Assembly (NCBI GenBank): GCA_035535615.1
Contig: DATLPP010000249.1
Location: forward strand, 1 to 29,236
Direction of reading: 5' to 3'
Origin: Candidatus Udaeobacter sp.
GTDB taxonomy: Bacteria > Chloroflexota > Limnocylindria > P2-11E
DNA: 29,236 nucleotides
Made by a program: the position numbers and the translations under genes. The notes under the pieces were generated by a model. It had not been told where the DNA came from. It saw only the letters and a list, made by a program, of their open reading frames with translations, and made no database searches. This document shows positions 7,278 to 17,122 of this stretch, piece after piece (the stretch's first letter is position 1; each line of letters starts with the position of its first letter).

Positions 7278-7349
7278 TGAGCCAGCAGGGATTCGAACCC
7301 TGGACCAAGAGATTAAGAGTCTCCTGCTCTACCGCTGAGCTACTGGCCC
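7278..7349 (-). tRNA. tRNA-Lys(CTT)
   Basis: GGGCCAG-TA-GCTC-AGCGGTA-GAGC-A-GGAGA-CTCTTAA-TCTCT-TGGTC-CAGGG-TTCGAAT-CCCTG-CTGGCTC-A: full cloverleaf, anticodon CTT, CCA not encoded. Candidate -10 TACCAT at 7358-7363. Confidence 0.97.
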
Positions 7350-11685: not shown

Positions 11686-13503
11686 TCAGGGCTTCGGAGG
11701 GTCGGGCGCGACGAGCGGGCCGCCCCAGACGGGGGCGTAGTGGCTCGCGAAGAAGTCTTGGTGGAGCACCTTGCCGTTCTCGTACACCGTGCGCGTCTTG
11801 AACACGTCGCGGCCGGCGACGGTGACACCCTTCGGGAATGCCGGGTCGGCGGGTTGATCCGGCGCGGGTTGCACGAAGTTCTTCTGCGTCGCGGCGCTCA
11901 CCGCGACCGTGCGACCTGTTGGGATCCCCCAGACATCGATGGTGAGCGAAGTCCAGTCGCTCCATGACCAGATGAAGACGGGATTCGCCGTGTCGTTGCG
12001 CCACTTGAAGTCGACACCCGGGTCGAACACCGCGGCGTCGTAGCCGATCGGATAGCGATCGATGTAGTACCCGTGCGCGTGCCGCTCGACGATCTCGTAT
12101 CCCTGCGCGGCAACGGCGTTGAAGATCGTGGTCGACACCTGGCAGAGGCCGCCGCCGATGACGTTTTCATCAGAGCGGTTGTTGATGATCGCGCCGGCGT
12201 ACGCGTACCCGCGCTCGGTGGTCACAGGACCGAGTAGCTCCCAGAACGAGAAGGTTTGCCCGGGGAGGATGACCACACCGTCGAACTGCGACGCGCCGGT
12301 CGAGATGTTCGCGTGACGCGACGCGCTCGGCGGATAGGACGTGGTGAATGTCGAAGTCCGCACAAGGTTCGGCAACAGCGCCTTCGCCTGTTCGGTGGTG
12401 AATGCGGAGGCGTCGACAACGGCGGGCGCCGCCAGATCGCGCGTCGCGCCGGTGGCCGGGCGTACGAGCTCATCGAGCACCATCGCCCGAAGCTTTTCCT
12501 GGTCGACCTTGACTCCGCTCTCAGATGGAATGATCGAGGGCACGTGGTCAGCATTGAGGCTGAACTTCGCGCTCTTGCCTGGATGATCGAGAACGACGCC
12601 GAGCGCGATCGCCCAGCTCGCGACGCGCTCGTTCACGAGCGAGACCTGATAGCGGTACCTCACAGCGGGCGCGATCGCATCTTGCGGGATCGCGGGGAGC
12701 TCACCCGGCTTCGCGAGCACGCGGTCGATCGCGAGGAGGCTCGCGAGATACGTTGCGTTCTCCGTGAAAGTCCGGTCCTCCACGCGGACGGTGACCGGGA
12801 CGACCGCGGCGGCAGCGCGCGCATACGCCTCGTCGAATCCGGACGCGTCGACCGCCGGATACGACGTGCGAACGCGAAGGGCGACCTCGCGATCGCCGAG
12901 CGAGTCGGCGGACAGAAGTGCGGCGACCGTTCCGGCGCGATCGACCTCGCGACCGAGCGCCGGTTGAGTTACCTCGAGACCGGACGGGCCGACCCGAAGC
13001 TCGCCCGAGACCGATGCGCGATCGGTGTCGCGAGCCGCGGATGCGACCCATGCATCGAGTGCGTCGCCCTTCGCGTGCATCGCGAAGGGGACGTTCGCCT
13101 GGCCGCGCACCGCATCGATCCACGCCCCGAGCCGATCGAGGATGCCTCCGGACTTTCCATACGCAAGCGCGGCGGTCACGGCAGCATCGAGGTCAGGTGC
13201 GATGCCCAGTTCGGCATTTGTCGTCCGCCACGTTCGTGAGCCGTCGGTGAGCGCCACCGAGGACGAGGCCCACGGCGCAGCAAGCTGGGCGGCGAGACGG
13301 TCGCGGATCGAGCCCGCCTCGAGCGAGCCGATATCGACGCCACCGACGCTCATGCCCGGCAGCGCGCGGGACGCGTACACCGCGTCCGCAGCGAAGGCGG
13401 CGCCGGCCGCAAGCGCGATAGCCGCGATCGGGGCGAGAGCAAGTATCCAGACGCCACGACGTGACGTCCGGGTCTGCTCGCCGCTTCGTGCGAATACCGC
13501 CAT
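11686..13503 (-). CDS. VanW-family protein with N-terminal anchor and putative peptidoglycan-binding repeats
   Basis: LPGMSVGGVDIG; PGQTFSFWELLGP, ERGY, GGGLCQVSTTIFNA, IVERHAH, YPIGYDAAV, DFKWRNDT. RBS GGAGG. Confidence 0.9.
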   Translation of the reverse strand: MAVFARSGEQTRTSRRGVWILALAPIAAIALAAGAAFAADAVYASRALPGMSVGGVDIGSLEAGSIRDRLAAQLAAPWASSSVALTDGSRTWRTTNAELGIAPDLDAAVTAALAYGKSGGILDRLGAWIDAVRGQANVPFAMHAKGDALDAWVASAARDTDRASVSGELRVGPSGLEVTQPALGREVDRAGTVAALLSADSLGDREVALRVRTSYPAVDASGFDEAYARAAAAVVPVTVRVEDRTFTENATYLASLLAIDRVLAKPGELPAIPQDAIAPAVRYRYQVSLVNERVASWAIALGVVLDHPGKSAKFSLNADHVPSIIPSESGVKVDQEKLRAMVLDELVRPATGATRDLAAPAVVDASAFTTEQAKALLPNLVRTSTFTTSYPPSASRHANISTGASQFDGVVILPGQTFSFWELLGPVTTERGYAYAGAIINNRSDENVIGGGLCQVSTTIFNAVAAQGYEIVERHAHGYYIDRYPIGYDAAVFDPGVDFKWRNDTANPVFIWSWSDWTSLTIDVWGIPTGRTVAVSAATQKNFVQPAPDQPADPAFPKGVTVAGRDVFKTRTVYENGKVLHQDFFASHYAPVWGGPLVAPDPPKP

Positions 13504-13550
13504 GCCCTCGTACGCCTCCCCGAGCGCTCTAGCGCGCTCCCTTTAGCTCG

Positions 13551-13567
13551 AGCAACTTGCGTGCCTT
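13551..13567 (-). promoter_or_regulatory. sigma54-type -24/-12 promoter upstream of the VanW-family gene
   Basis: AAGGCACGCAAGTTGCT (GGCACG-N4-TTGCT). Predicted TSS about 13540, giving a ~37-nt leader containing the RBS. Confidence 0.5.
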
Positions 13568-13762
13568 ACAGCGGTCGGCTGCTCGCTCGTCGTGAATCGT
13601 CCACTTACCTAGACGAACGAAGTGTCATGCCCGTTCCGGTCACCAGGCGACTGATTTGAGACGTTAGCAACTACTACGTCTGTTTCCCAAACGACATCCG
13701 GAATAGCCGCCCTATTTCATTCCGATTAGTTAGTAATGAGTAAATGATCCCGAAGACGCCGT

Positions 13763-14194
13763 CGGGTCGTGCCCCACGTAGGAGTGTGCGGGTCCTGTCC
13801 CGGCTACGCGGGTCTCTCCCTCAGCGCACCCTCCCCGCCTTGCAGCTCACTGCGTTCGCTGCGGGCGGGTCCCCGGGGAACCCGCGCTTCGTAAGAGACC
13901 CGCTGCGCCGTGCCACCCGCACACCCGCCCTACTGACCCCCGACCCGCGCCGTCTTCGAGCAGAGAAAAGGATTCGGAGGCGCGACGGATCGCAGAGGAC
14001 GCGCGTGCGGGCGTGCGTGACCGCGCGAGGGCGTGCGGGTGGCACGGCGCAGCGGAAGCAGCGTCGGGGTCTTCTGAGCGAGCGGCCCCTGGACGGCCGT
14101 CCATCGCGATCCCACGAGGGGCCGAGCGAAGAAGACCCCGGCGCTGCTTACCGCCCGTCGCCGTGACAGGACCCGCAAGGTTCGGCACGACCCG
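13763..14194 (+). ncRNA. Unclassified large structured non-coding element (~430 nt)
   Basis: Nested long inverted repeats: 13763-73/14184-94 (11 bp), 13787-99/14165-77 (13 bp), 13808-17/13894-903 (10 bp), 13900-22/14033-55 (23 bp), 14056-75/14130-49 (20 bp, one G-U). Most imperfect pairs are G-U on the + strand, so strand assignment is tentative. Confidence 0.5.
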
Positions 14195-14225
14195 CGCAGT
14201 GCCACGCGCGCCCCGCGATCCAGGC

Positions 14226-14269
14226 AAGAAAAAGCCCGGGCACCCCAGGGGAGCAGGGAGTGCCCGGGC
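14226..14269 (-). terminator. Rho-independent terminator of nrdJ
   Basis: Stem GCCCGGGCAC (14260-69 / 14234-43) followed on the minus strand by TTTTTCTT. Confidence 0.8.
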
Positions 14270-14320
14270 AGTAGGCAGAACTGGCCAGCGGGCGGGCCGG
14301 CCAGGGCCTGACGGAGTGAA

Positions 14321-17122
14321 TCAGCTACACCCGGTGGTCTCTCCGCAGTTCTCGCACTTGTGGCAGGTGCCGCTTCGAACGGTCAGCCAGCCACAACGCG
14401 GACAGGGGGGCGCATCGGGTGTGGAATTGAGTCGTCGGTAAGCGGGAGCGTCGGCGGTCGGCGCCACCGTGTGGCCATTCCCACTCGCAGCCGGTGTTTC
14501 AGGCGTCGCGAGCTGCACCACGCGGTTCAGGAGCTCGAGCTGCGGCGTGGCGTCCGCGACCTCGGTCGTCCGAATGAGACCGAGCTCGGCCCGCTCGGGC
14601 TCCGAGAGGAAGCGATACCCCAACCAGCGGAAGACGTAATCGACGATCGACTTCGCGAAGCCGATCTCGGGATTGCCGGTCCATCCAGCCGGCTCGAAAC
14701 GCATGTGTCCGAACTTCTCGACAAGGTGCGAGAGCGGGACGCCGTACTGGAAGAGCAGAGAGACGCTCGTGGCGAACGCATCCATCATCCCGGAGAGGGT
14801 CGAGCCCTCCTTCGCCATGGTGACGAAGAGCTCGCCGGGGGTGTTGTCCTCGAAGAGCCCGACGGTGATGTAGCCCTCGTGCCCTTCGATCTTGAACTTG
14901 TGAGTGAGCGAAGCCCGCGTGTCGGCGAGGCGGCGGCGCTGCGGCCGCGTGACCTCGACGATCCGCTCCACGACCGTCTCGACCGTCTTGGTGTTGCTCT
15001 CCTTGTTGCTCGTGTTGACGGGCTGGACTTTCTTGCTGCCGTCGCGGTAGATCGCGATCGCCTTGAGGCCGTGCTTCCACGCCTCGACGTACGCCTCGCT
15101 AACGTCGTCGACGCTCGCGGTCTCCGGAAGGTTGACGGTCTTCGAGATCGCGCCGGAGATGAACGGCTGGACCGCGCCCATCATCTTGATGTGACCCATG
15201 TGGTGGATCGTGCGCACGCCGTTCTGCGGCTTGAATGCGCAATCGAAGACGGCGAGGTCTTCGTCCTTGATGCCGGGCGCGCCCTCGATGCCGCCGAACT
15301 GCTCGATGTAAGTGGTGATCGCGCCCGACTCGGTCTGGCTGTATCCGAGGCTCCGCAGGGCTGACGGTACGCTGCCGTTCACGAGCTTCAGCATCCCGCC
15401 GCCGACGAGCTTCTTGTACTTCACGAGCGCGATATCCGGCTCAACGCCGGTGGTGTCGCAATCCATCATGAAGCTGATCGTTCCGGTCGGGGCGAGGACG
15501 GATGCCTGCGCGTTGCGGTAGCCCGCCGGGCGTCCGAACGCGACCGCGTCGTCCCAGGCCTGACGCGCCGCCGAGAGGAGGCTCGCCGGAAGGAGCTCGT
15601 CGCGGATCCGGTACGCGTGCAGACGGTGCATCTGAATGACCCGGTCGTGCGCGTCCTTGTTCTTGGGGTACGCCTCGTACGGTCCCACCGCCTCCGCGAT
15701 CCGACCGGACTGCGAGTAGGCGGCGCCGGTCATGAGGGCGGTGATCGCGGCAGCGTACGCGCGGCCCTGATTGGAGTCGTACGGCAGACCCCGCTGCATG
15801 AGGAGCGCGCCGAGGTTGGCGTAGCCCAGGCCGAGCTGCCGGTGCGAGCGAGCGTTCTCCGCGATCTTGGCCGTCGGATAGTCGGAGTGTCCGACGAGGA
15901 TTTCCTGCGCGGTGAAGACGACCTCCACCGCCGCGCGGAACCGCTCCACGTCGAACTCGCCGTCGCTGTGCACGAAACGAAGCAAATTCAACGACGCGAG
16001 ATTGCAGGCCGAGTCGTCGATGCTCATGTACTCGCTGCATGGATTCGATCCGTTGATCCGGCCGCTGGCCGGCGTGGTGTGCCAGTCGTTGATCGTCGTG
16101 TCGAACTGCATGCCCGGGTCGCCGCACTGCCATGCGGCCTCAGAGATCTCGCTCAGCAGCGCACGCGCCTTGATCGTCTCGAGCACGGTGCCGCCGATTC
16201 GCGCGGTCAGGCTCCAGTCCTCTTCCGTCTGCGCCTTCTTCATGAACTCGTCCGTCACGCGGACGGAGTTGTTCGCGTTCTGGAACTGGATCGACTGCCA
16301 AGCCTCCCCGTTGAGGCTCATGTCATAGCCGGCCTCGCCGAGCGCCCAGGCCTTCTTCTCTTCCTTGGCCTTGCACCAGATGAACTCGTGCACATCGGGG
16401 TGATCGACGTCGAGGATCACCATCTTCGCGGCGCGCCGCGTGGTGCCACCGGACTTGATCGAACCCGCGACCGAGTCCGCGCCACGCATGAACGAAACGG
16501 GTCCGGAGGCAAAGCCGCCGCCCGAGAGGTTCTCCTTCTGAGATCGGATCCGTGAGACGTTCACGCCCGAGCCGGATCCGCCTTTGAAGATGATCCCTTC
16601 GTCGCGGAACCAGTCGAGGATCGAGTGCATATCGTCCTCGACAGAGAGGATGAAGCACGCGCTCGCCTGTTGGGGAACCCCTTCCACGCCGATGTTGAAC
16701 CACACCGGCGAGTTGAAGGACGCGTGCTGGTGGACCATGAGGTACTTGAGCTCGTCCGCGAACGCGTCCCGGTCAGATGCGGTCAGGAAGTAGCCGCCCT
16801 CGAAGCCGGCCCGAGCGATGGTGTCGACCACGCGGTCGACCATCTGCTTGACGCTGGACTCCCGCTCCGGCGCTCCGAGCTTGCCGCGGAAGTACTTCGA
16901 GGCCACGACGTTCGTCGCCGTCTGCGACCAGGACTTTGGGACCTCGACTCCCTTCTGCTCGAAGACGTTCCCGCTCTCTCCCGGGATGACAGAGTCGCGG
17001 AGCTCCCACTCGATCTCGTCATAGGGGTGGACGCCCTCGCGGCTGAAGCGACGTTGAATCCGGAGTCCCTTTTTCGGCTCCGCGCGGTAGACGGAAAGGT
17101 CTGCGATGTCGGCGATTGCCAT
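14321..17122 (-). CDS. nrdJ: Class II (adenosylcobalamin-dependent) ribonucleotide reductase with C-terminal TSCPD-like domain and Zn ribbon
   Basis: FNSPVWFN, QASACFILSV, NPCSEY, ACNLASLNL, IAPTGT-like APTGTISF, ISKTVN, IYRDGSK, terminal CPRCG...CHKCENCG. No intein-like insertion seen. Confidence 0.97.
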   Translation of the reverse strand: MAIADIADLSVYRAEPKKGLRIQRRFSREGVHPYDEIEWELRDSVIPGESGNVFEQKGVEVPKSWSQTATNVVASKYFRGKLGAPERESSVKQMVDRVVDTIARAGFEGGYFLTASDRDAFADELKYLMVHQHASFNSPVWFNIGVEGVPQQASACFILSVEDDMHSILDWFRDEGIIFKGGSGSGVNVSRIRSQKENLSGGGFASGPVSFMRGADSVAGSIKSGGTTRRAAKMVILDVDHPDVHEFIWCKAKEEKKAWALGEAGYDMSLNGEAWQSIQFQNANNSVRVTDEFMKKAQTEEDWSLTARIGGTVLETIKARALLSEISEAAWQCGDPGMQFDTTINDWHTTPASGRINGSNPCSEYMSIDDSACNLASLNLLRFVHSDGEFDVERFRAAVEVVFTAQEILVGHSDYPTAKIAENARSHRQLGLGYANLGALLMQRGLPYDSNQGRAYAAAITALMTGAAYSQSGRIAEAVGPYEAYPKNKDAHDRVIQMHRLHAYRIRDELLPASLLSAARQAWDDAVAFGRPAGYRNAQASVLAPTGTISFMMDCDTTGVEPDIALVKYKKLVGGGMLKLVNGSVPSALRSLGYSQTESGAITTYIEQFGGIEGAPGIKDEDLAVFDCAFKPQNGVRTIHHMGHIKMMGAVQPFISGAISKTVNLPETASVDDVSEAYVEAWKHGLKAIAIYRDGSKKVQPVNTSNKESNTKTVETVVERIVEVTRPQRRRLADTRASLTHKFKIEGHEGYITVGLFEDNTPGELFVTMAKEGSTLSGMMDAFATSVSLLFQYGVPLSHLVEKFGHMRFEPAGWTGNPEIGFAKSIVDYVFRWLGYRFLSEPERAELGLIRTTEVADATPQLELLNRVVQLATPETPAASGNGHTVAPTADAPAYRRLNSTPDAPPCPRCGWLTVRSGTCHKCENCGETTGCS

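Follow-up and report, generated by a model that had tools for sequence, protein, structure and literature searches.

The stretch studied here, positions 13763–14194, lies within a 29,236-nt window (the whole stretch of DNA that was analysed), which is contig C249 of a 1.93-Mb metagenome-assembled genome (MAG) of the class Limnocylindria (Chloroflexota) from soil, called G000 here (285 contigs, 60% completeness, 67% GC). It falls in the non-coding interval 13504–14320 between a VanW-like gene and nrdJ, and Pfam matches on both neighbours bore out this position. A preliminary description had offered two readings of the stretch: a single non-coding RNA of about 430 nt, or a non-autonomous palindromic mobile or repeat element. 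The checks on genomic copy number and empty sites that it proposed found many dispersed copies and empty orthologous sites; the repeat element stood and the single RNA did not. In all likelihood, the stretch is not one RNA and consists of two copies, A on the + strand and B on the − strand, of a dispersed hairpin-forming repeat. These would form a cluster of non-autonomous elements at an insertion hot spot, similar to repetitive extragenic palindromic (REP) sequences or MITEs (miniature inverted-repeat transposable elements). The features of the locus are as follows.

11686–13503, − strand: VanW-like gene (Pfam)
13548–13746, − strand: conserved block upstream of the VanW-like gene, with an AT-rich tract at about 13700–13745, outside the repeats
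13751–13787, + strand: left outer arm of A, locus-specific, pairing imperfectly with 13921–13958
13788–13920, + strand: element A, a 133-nt hairpin with its L terminus at 13788–13801, its R terminus at 13910–13920 and the "A" core between
13921–13958, + strand: right outer arm of A, complementary to 13751–13787
13959–14034, unstranded: A–B spacer, holding the locus-specific arm GGATCGCAGAGGACGCG (13987–14003), which pairs with 14205–14221
14035–14176, − strand: element B, an inverted frame and the "B" core, with its R terminus at 14035–14045 and its L terminus at 14165–14176
14056–14149, unstranded: B core, a hairpin module of about 92 nt with the 20-bp stem and its inner pair, also found alone
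14177–14212, unstranded: G000-specific stretch with the degenerate terminus-like motifs GGCACGACCCGC (14184–14195) and GCAGTGCCACGCGCG, and the 3′ half of the 11-bp stem
14229–14270, − strand: intrinsic terminator of nrdJ, a hairpin (14234–14269) followed by a T-run (terminator scan)
14321–17122, − strand: nrdJ, class II ribonucleotide reductase (Pfam)

Two inverted repeats and the apparent 430-nt fold

The self-genome BLAST of the region showed that only two blocks, 13787–13921 (A) and 14031–14177 (B), match elsewhere, each at no fewer than nine (at least nine) other places. Clustering of the short repeats in G000 gave 12 members of A and 10 of B. The alignment of A and B showed different middles and common ends, with the 5′ start GCGGGTCCTGTC and the 3′ end GTGCCACCCGC. 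In the window, A has the + orientation and B the − orientation, and the pair stands head-to-head. A covariance model of the common terminal frame, R1, scored A at 75 bits and B at 52 bits on the − strand. The A copies at other loci and in other species were 96–98% identical, and the similarity stopped exactly at 13788 and 13920. The left outer arm of A had no repeat elsewhere in G000; its positions 13751–13761 pair with 13948–13958 (11 nt, 91%), with GTGT/ACAC next to the termini. Copies of the B core without a frame were found on C80, C90 and C220, and many 92-nt matches to this core reached 93–98% identity, versus 85–91% for full B copies.

All the stems listed in the preliminary description were recovered in 13763–14194 by a repeat finder.

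13763–13773 / 14184–14194: outermost stem, 11 bp, perfect
within 13787–13808 / 14156–14177 (22 nt, 91%): second outer stem, with a perfect 13-bp core
13784–13793 / 13915–13924: 10-bp stem
13900–13926 / 14029–14055 (27 nt, 96%): "23-bp" stem
14056–14075 / 14130–14149 (95%): 20-bp stem
CGGCCCCT / AGGGGCCG: inner pair inside the 20-bp stem

The long-range stems among them exist because the frames of A and B lie inverted and pair. In the 13-bp outer stem the L termini of A and B pair with each other, and in the 23-bp stem their R termini do so; the 10-bp and 20-bp stems are the elements' own hairpins. The apparent multibranch fold of 430 nt is a by-product of the inverted frames. The outermost 11-bp stem was found in G000 only, and its 3′ stretch was missing from the aligned species G005, G012 and G019.

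One large multi-domain non-coding RNA transcribed from the + strand would fit the very stable fold of the region (−288.3 kcal/mol for the + strand of 13750–14210 versus −227 ± 6.6 in 100 shuffles, z −9.3), and both the A(+)/B(−) layout and the long-range pairs are kept in G005, G012 and G019. We regard such an RNA as extremely improbable. The long-range pairs join the common termini of two inverted repeats and are hence automatic; the nested fold is kept in the four species with both elements (G000, G005, G012 and G019) only because both inverted frames are kept, and 5 of its 139 pairs showed a compensatory change among them. The layout is missing in most species of the genus, and A and B occur apart at about 20 other loci. 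The preference for the + strand was not confirmed either, as the − strand folds slightly better (−293.8 kcal/mol, z −7.9) and the component elements are oppositely oriented. The AT-rich tract that had been proposed as a promoter for the + strand belongs to the conserved block at about 13548–13746, upstream of vanW on the − strand, and by sequence conservation the supposed promoter is more likely this vanW upstream region read on the − strand. The metatranscriptome evidence consists of assembled contigs from three studies, which give neither strand nor ends and may include DNA carry-over. No such contig spans the composite, and those with other A copies in unrelated flanks break at 13787/13788 and 13920.

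The absence of a known RNA class, as the preliminary description had it, agreed with the Rfam scans. No family matched the elements in the window or in 15 loci of other phyla at gathering and E-value thresholds, and the only gathering-level matches were a tRNA at 7278–7349 of the window and one tRNA in locus L071. The E-value scans of 13500–14330 and of two Planctomycete copies gave sub-threshold chance matches only, such as microRNA precursors at 17–23 bits against gathering thresholds of 70–124. The open reading frames (ORFs) crossing the region (140, 126, 142 and 91 aa) had no Pfam match and were treated as high-GC artefacts. Such elements create spurious long ORFs in high-GC soil MAGs, and probably contig breaks as well. 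With these results, a candidate large novel non-coding RNA is removed from the window, and the locus illustrates that two inverted repeat copies can imitate a multi-domain RNA fold.

Some further repeat structures were observed. An extra mini-hairpin of about 28–30 nt (GGGGCAGGGGCCCC...GGCGTAGCC) follows directly after the L terminus in two independent A copies (L029, from the same locus of G005, and G000 C60:4886–5051), and looks like a nested insertion into A. A second partial L terminus was seen 22–50 nt upstream of the full copy (L-L-R) in many elements from several phyla (L055, L074, L083, L084, G000 C142:3733–3887 and L164:1894–2043), a recurring arrangement that is either a partial duplication or a nested insertion. 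A third repeat family of G000 has 13 copies with the core CCGAAACCCTCTTTACGCGG...CGCGGGGGCCCTCGG (C30:11206–11292, C56:4415–4516, C121:218–305, C148:677–772, C216:12178–12281 and eight more). Its flanks are perfectly complementary over 7–13 nt and differ in every copy, so that the conserved part forms the tip of a stem that varies. Over 2–5 kb, several of the contigs in the G000 MAG match one another in pairs at 86–94% identity (window 1–4975/C58:9081–14057, C16/C281, C80/C200, C129/C226 and C146/C181), which suggests a mixture of two related strains or species in the bin.

Probable insertion and possible core exchange at the vanW–nrdJ site

The orthologous vanW–nrdJ loci compared (n = 18) each retained both genes, and synteny was kept in all 18, with a spacer of 338–913 nt. 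Element A occurred in 21/21 species of the genus and B in 15/21; these counts include the unpublished G010, without which they are 20/20 and 14/20, and no other claim uses this genome. Neither A nor B turned up in 19 genomes from other genera of the class, and nrdJ was present in all 21 other species. The flanks of the site (about 13548–13746 and 14213–14320) were conserved throughout, and the content between them differed. Five species (G017, G006, G009, G008 and G013) have the flanks only, without elements, and three (G005, G012 and G019) have A and B as in the window. An A-type element stands reversed in G020, G011, G014 and G004, B stands alone once in G015 and twice in G002, another core occupies the locus in G007 and G016, and a stump is left in G021. 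The nrdJ terminator was kept at 85–99% in all species of the genus, including those with the empty site, and the vanW upstream block aligned at 75–85% in at least 10 species, whichever repeat adjoins it. The site downstream of nrdJ and upstream of vanW is very probably an insertion hot spot.

The spacer of G018 (L045) holds three tandem copies of an unrelated unit of about 100 nt (GAGCGGTTCATCCGCGAGGAGC...CAGCCTGAGC...), which resembles a dispersed six-copy family of G000 (for example C23:723–799, C53:2904–2990, C120:4409–4492, C134:15–99 and C274:7714–7870). As this unit belongs to another family, the hot spot accepts unrelated repeat families.

The same outer arms (GGATCGCAGAGGA...GGTGT / frame / ACACC...GCGATCC) surround different cores in several species. 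Judged from these sequences, the pattern suggests that cores were exchanged at a resident frame and that the elements did not always arrive by fresh insertion. The GGATCGCAGAGGACGCG motif precedes the elements at this locus in G012, G019, G002, G015, G020, G011 and G016. The GGATCGCAGAGGA motif was considered as a component of the repeat and rejected, being locus-specific and not part of the repeat genome-wide.

Empty sites were found at four loci in all: vanW–nrdJ and three others with clean filled/empty pairs (copies on C19, C98 and C67), compared from BLAST coordinates. The convergent stop codons are 1, 3, 7 or 32 nt apart in G020, G021, G017 or G004, and the corresponding distances in G000 are 191, 177–184 and 217 nt. 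The extra DNA at filled sites exceeds the conserved element by 40–80 nt, which are copy-specific, partly complementary outer arms. The elements are 73–150 nt long. In G005, which has the best assembly in the genus (92% completeness in 20 contigs), exact termini numbered 31 (L) and 38 (R). A dispersed non-autonomous repeat is characterised by many copies at unrelated loci together with orthologous empty sites, as seen here.

The junctions showed no direct repeat in 105 of 134 copies, and no target duplication appeared in the three filled-versus-empty comparisons. Instead, the flanks prolonged the hairpin by a mean of 3.6 bp, versus 0.82 ± 0.10 when flanks were shuffled among the 134 copies. The four bases next to the termini were diverse, with CGCC in 9, CGTT in 5 and CGTC in 5 of these copies. 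The neighbours of the 58 classifiable copies were convergent (27), tandem (29) or divergent (2). Since only two lie between divergent genes, the elements prefer the 3′ ends of genes and avoid promoter regions. REP-type repeats likewise lie at gene 3′ ends, away from promoter regions (PMC3733652). Among the 29 copies between tandem genes, 20 had the orientation of the genes and 9 the opposite one.

Classical MITEs, that is, deletion derivatives of a DDE-type insertion sequence that move through their terminal inverted repeats and leave target-site duplications, would also be small, ORF-less, multicopy and intergenic. The ends are alike in inverted orientation (GCGGGT...ACCCGC), and empty sites exist. 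This origin is very unlikely, given the missing target duplications and the complementary flanks found in their place. The two ends match over 6 + 3 bp only, with a conserved asymmetry of 5 versus 2 nt; G005 had no long element with these ends, and G000 had no multicopy repeat of insertion-sequence size, although MAG assemblies may lose such copies.

The flanking genes and their surroundings gave additional observations. No sigma-70-like site was called and no Rfam match was found in the vanW upstream block, which contains a small hairpin AGACGT...ACGTCT at about 13659–13681. RNA-library contigs identical to the window extend from the vanW start to 13602 and 13639, and the block may represent a long 5′ leader that contains a regulatory element. 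The open frame of nrdJ has 936–978 aa in most species and 1333–1342 aa in G005, G012, G019, G021, G017 and G018; an insertion of about 400 aa, perhaps an intein, would possibly fit the longer frames. The public record "Candidatus Bathyarchaeia archaeon SMAG_U11552" (DASPWX01; L056, L057, L075 and L114) has contig numbers and coordinates equal to those of G002, a member of this Chloroflexota genus, and the deposited Bathyarchaeia name looks wrong.

The terminal frame across phyla and its possible mobilisation

In the frame, a 6-bp helix (GCGGGU/ACCCGC) is followed by an asymmetric internal loop (CCUGU/CC) and then by a helix starting with C-N-C/G-N-G. The basal helix, the CCTGT/CC loop and the first pairs of the next helix were invariant in 27 aligned elements, partly by construction of the search. 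The search left the next five stem positions free, and these covary strongly: 46 cells were changed on both sides, compared with 17.9 ± 2.9 in shuffles (0/500 as high). The covariation score of these positions was 0.279, against at most 0.083 with the partners slid.

A pattern scan for both termini 100–130 nt apart, in one genome per prokaryotic species, matched at least 115 stretches. Outside the Limnocylindria genus, the matches listed included Solirubrobacterales, Dormibacteraeota, Rokuibacteriota, Omnitrophota, Planctomycetales, Clostridia, Saccharibacteria, Bifidobacteriaceae, Myxococcales, Gemmatimonadota and Acidoferrum. A complete Solirubrobacterales chromosome carries 23 L termini, and a Planctomycete MAG of 43% GC carries 11, mostly in a minimal form of 91 nt. 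Four host loci at 43–48% GC contain their own housekeeping genes (carB-purF, ftsK-miaB-like, rplT-pheS). Because of these low-GC loci and of the multi-copy chromosome and MAG, contamination does not explain the matches across phyla. The R1 model found 13 copies in G000 and none in 150 other Chloroflexota genomes (97 genera), with 23 candidates scored per genome. By its sequence matches, this patchy distribution is like that of a horizontally moving element. The scan of viral contigs gave a single match and hence no phage link. The family illustrates modular hairpin repeats clearly: Chloroflexota, Actinomycetota, Planctomycetota, Omnitrophota and Clostridia have the ends in identical form, and the stems and cores can vary freely. 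Among the Chloroflexota, it was found in one genus only.

We propose that each element is a modular rod, with an invariant terminal frame, a variable covarying stem and an exchangeable core. The elements would spread at the DNA level through an enzyme acting in trans, which would recognise the frame in its folded state, probably in single-stranded DNA, by analogy with REP sequences, integron attC sites and IS200/IS605 ends. By the same analogy, the conserved asymmetry of the ends speaks for recognition of a folded frame and against a DDE transposase that binds two inverted repeats of equal form. The elements would also have moved between phyla, and recombination or conversion at the frames would exchange cores between copies. 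After insertion behind a gene they would be co-transcribed, and may act as 3′ hairpins that stabilise mRNA or end transcription. A more specific proposal, which we put forward only tentatively, is that the frame serves as the part by which a mobile hairpin of an undescribed kind is recognised. Such hairpins would insert without target duplication just after genes, swap cargo hairpins, cross phyla and depend on a trans enzyme, or on a universal host function, able to read single-stranded nucleic acid in folded form. They would hence belong neither to the REP/RAYT elements, the DDE-type MITEs or the IS200/605 derivatives nor to the Ssn-linked repeats. Should the frame indeed be read by a dedicated enzyme or host factor, this would be a new mechanism for extragenic palindromes and a possible structure-specific tool for single-stranded nucleic acid.

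Candidates for such an enzyme were sought by Pfam domain. No match to PF01797 (Y1/RAYT) was found in G000, G005, G020, G017, G013, G041 or G042, and the Y1 genes of G043–G045 (Clostridia, Planctomycete and Omnitrophota genomes) had no frame termini nearby. PF07282 (TnpB) had no match in G005, G041, G042 and G044 and one in G020; PF01548 (IS110) had none in G005, G020 and G042. PF01541 (GIY-YIG) had a single match each in G000, G005 and G020, a UvrC-sized ORF of 622–658 aa (622 aa in G005), and its match in G041 was an ORF of 464 aa. A DUF559/Vsr-like partner was rejected, since none is present in G005 or linked to the elements. A transposase between two elements was likewise rejected, as the bracketed genes were ordinary (a DUF4440/SnoaL-like protein, PheS, L20, ParA and ketopantoate reductase), and so was one in the 1-kb extra DNA of G005, where a zinc alcohol dehydrogenase lies.

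These searches bear on REPs or REPINs mobilised by RAYT, a Y1 HUH transposase, and on hairpin repeats partnered with an Ssn-type GIY-YIG nuclease. Hairpin repeats after genes, frequent head-to-head pairs (as in the window and locus L171) and missing target duplications are all REP-like, and CGTC-tagged REPs of Proteobacteria are known without a dedicated transposase (Di Nocera et al. 2013, PMC3733652). The PF01797 and GIY-YIG results, Y1 genes unflanked by elements, a length of 73–150 nt instead of 20–40 nt and the lack of a conserved GTAG or CGTC tag make membership in either system highly improbable.

Several points weigh against a horizontally mobile element. The mobile unit is not cleanly bounded, the surplus of 40–80 nt differing between copies. 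Insertion, as opposed to deletion in the species with empty sites, is inferred by parsimony only. No mobilising enzyme was found: G005 yielded no Y1/RAYT, TnpB, IS110 or DUF559 gene. Nor was an autonomous element seen there, as the exact L/R pairs of G005 are 115–150 nt apart and none encloses more than about 150 nt. The data also set limits, since most of the compared genomes are MAGs, in which repeats are under-assembled, and the R1 search scored a fixed number of candidates in each of the 151 Chloroflexota genomes. Finally, A copies of different species are 96–97% identical, compared with about 80% for orthologous intergenic DNA, and among the Planctomycete copies of a single genome the loops are kept and the stems covary; both patterns are also compatible with selection for a function of the RNA or DNA.

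These last two points lead to the possibility that each element is mainly a functional structured RNA, a hairpin in the 3′ untranslated region, a terminator or stabiliser, or a small-RNA family under selection, whose dispersal is secondary. The gathering of copies at gene 3′ ends, the excess of tandem copies in the orientation of the gene (20 versus 9) and the covariation of the stem across phyla would agree with this. A copies were found inside longer RNA-library contigs from the three studies, for which the limits on strand, ends and DNA carry-over hold, and the strand reading GCGGGUGGCAC...GACAGGACCCGC folds better by about 9 kcal/mol in 109 of 116 elements. However, G-U pairs were equally frequent on the two strands (291 versus 297), and thus the helices speak for neither RNA strand. 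The elements are not followed by a U-tract, nine of the tandem copies run antisense to the flanking genes, and related species lack the element at the same sites. We consider a primarily RNA-based family rather doubtful, although it is compatible with spreading hairpin elements, and a role of these elements as 3′ hairpins is possible.

Comparison with known systems

The criteria by which MITEs are recognised are a target-site duplication at each copy and a parent insertion sequence with the same ends, and the elements showed neither. Likewise, neither a repeat-flanked PF01797 gene nor a tagged palindrome of 20–40 nt, as in REP/REPIN-RAYT systems, was found. No element scored at or above the gathering threshold of any Rfam family. 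For PATE of IS200/IS605, TnpB-associated RNA and IS110-linked elements, the corresponding enzyme was not found in the element-rich genomes searched, apart from the single PF07282 match in G020.

BOX of Streptococcus pneumoniae, ERIC/IRU of enterobacteria and the mosaic small non-coding repeats of Deinococcus radiodurans are imperfect palindromes of about 100–200 nt from intergenic DNA that is transcribed, and like the elements described here they combine conserved ends with a variable middle in a mosaic or modular build. We know of no transposase for them. Compared from general knowledge of these families, their sequences are unrelated to the present elements, and to our knowledge each is confined to one genus or family, whereas the present frame is patchy across phyla. 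Integron attC sites are built alike, with a short conserved helix at the base, then an asymmetric spacer that is unpaired, a second helix and a terminal structure that varies, and are read as folded single-stranded DNA. The R″/R′ core of attC (RYYYAAC / GTTRRRY) is missing here, the termini being GCGGGT...ACCCGC in 27/27 aligned elements. The copies stand single or paired after housekeeping genes and not in cassette arrays; no search for integrase (IntI) genes was made.

The elements resemble REP, BIME and REPIN sequences as dispersed extragenic palindromes, mostly between convergent or tandem genes, that frequently form head-to-head pairs folding into larger structures, lack target duplications and are plausibly co-transcribed. 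They differ in their length of 73–150 nt, with a modular frame and an exchangeable core (REPs have 20–40 nt), in having no GTAG or CGTC tag and no RAYT gene in the genomes searched, and in having identical ends in several phyla, REP sequences being specific to a species or clade. The NTS/SRM hairpin repeats, which are associated with SsnA single-strand nucleases (Chenal et al. 2025, PMC11893778), are also multicopy hairpins with oriented non-palindromic features in several phyla, and offer a model of a small enzyme reading a folded single strand. Their motif (CGTCATTCCC..., about 30 nt) is unlike the frame, and no small cd10448-type GIY-YIG gene, which in Ssn systems usually has the repeats on its flanks, was found in the Limnocylindria genomes searched.

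A keyword search of the literature gave reviews of REP sequences and MITEs and no account of this family, and the terminal sequences gave only unrelated eukaryotic papers. The kind of element, extragenic palindromic repeats, is known; the family itself is a variant without a description found in the literature. No known partner enzyme was found for it, and it is further set apart from the described families by its lack of target duplication, its complementary variable flanks, its modular frame and core, and ends that are invariant across phyla.

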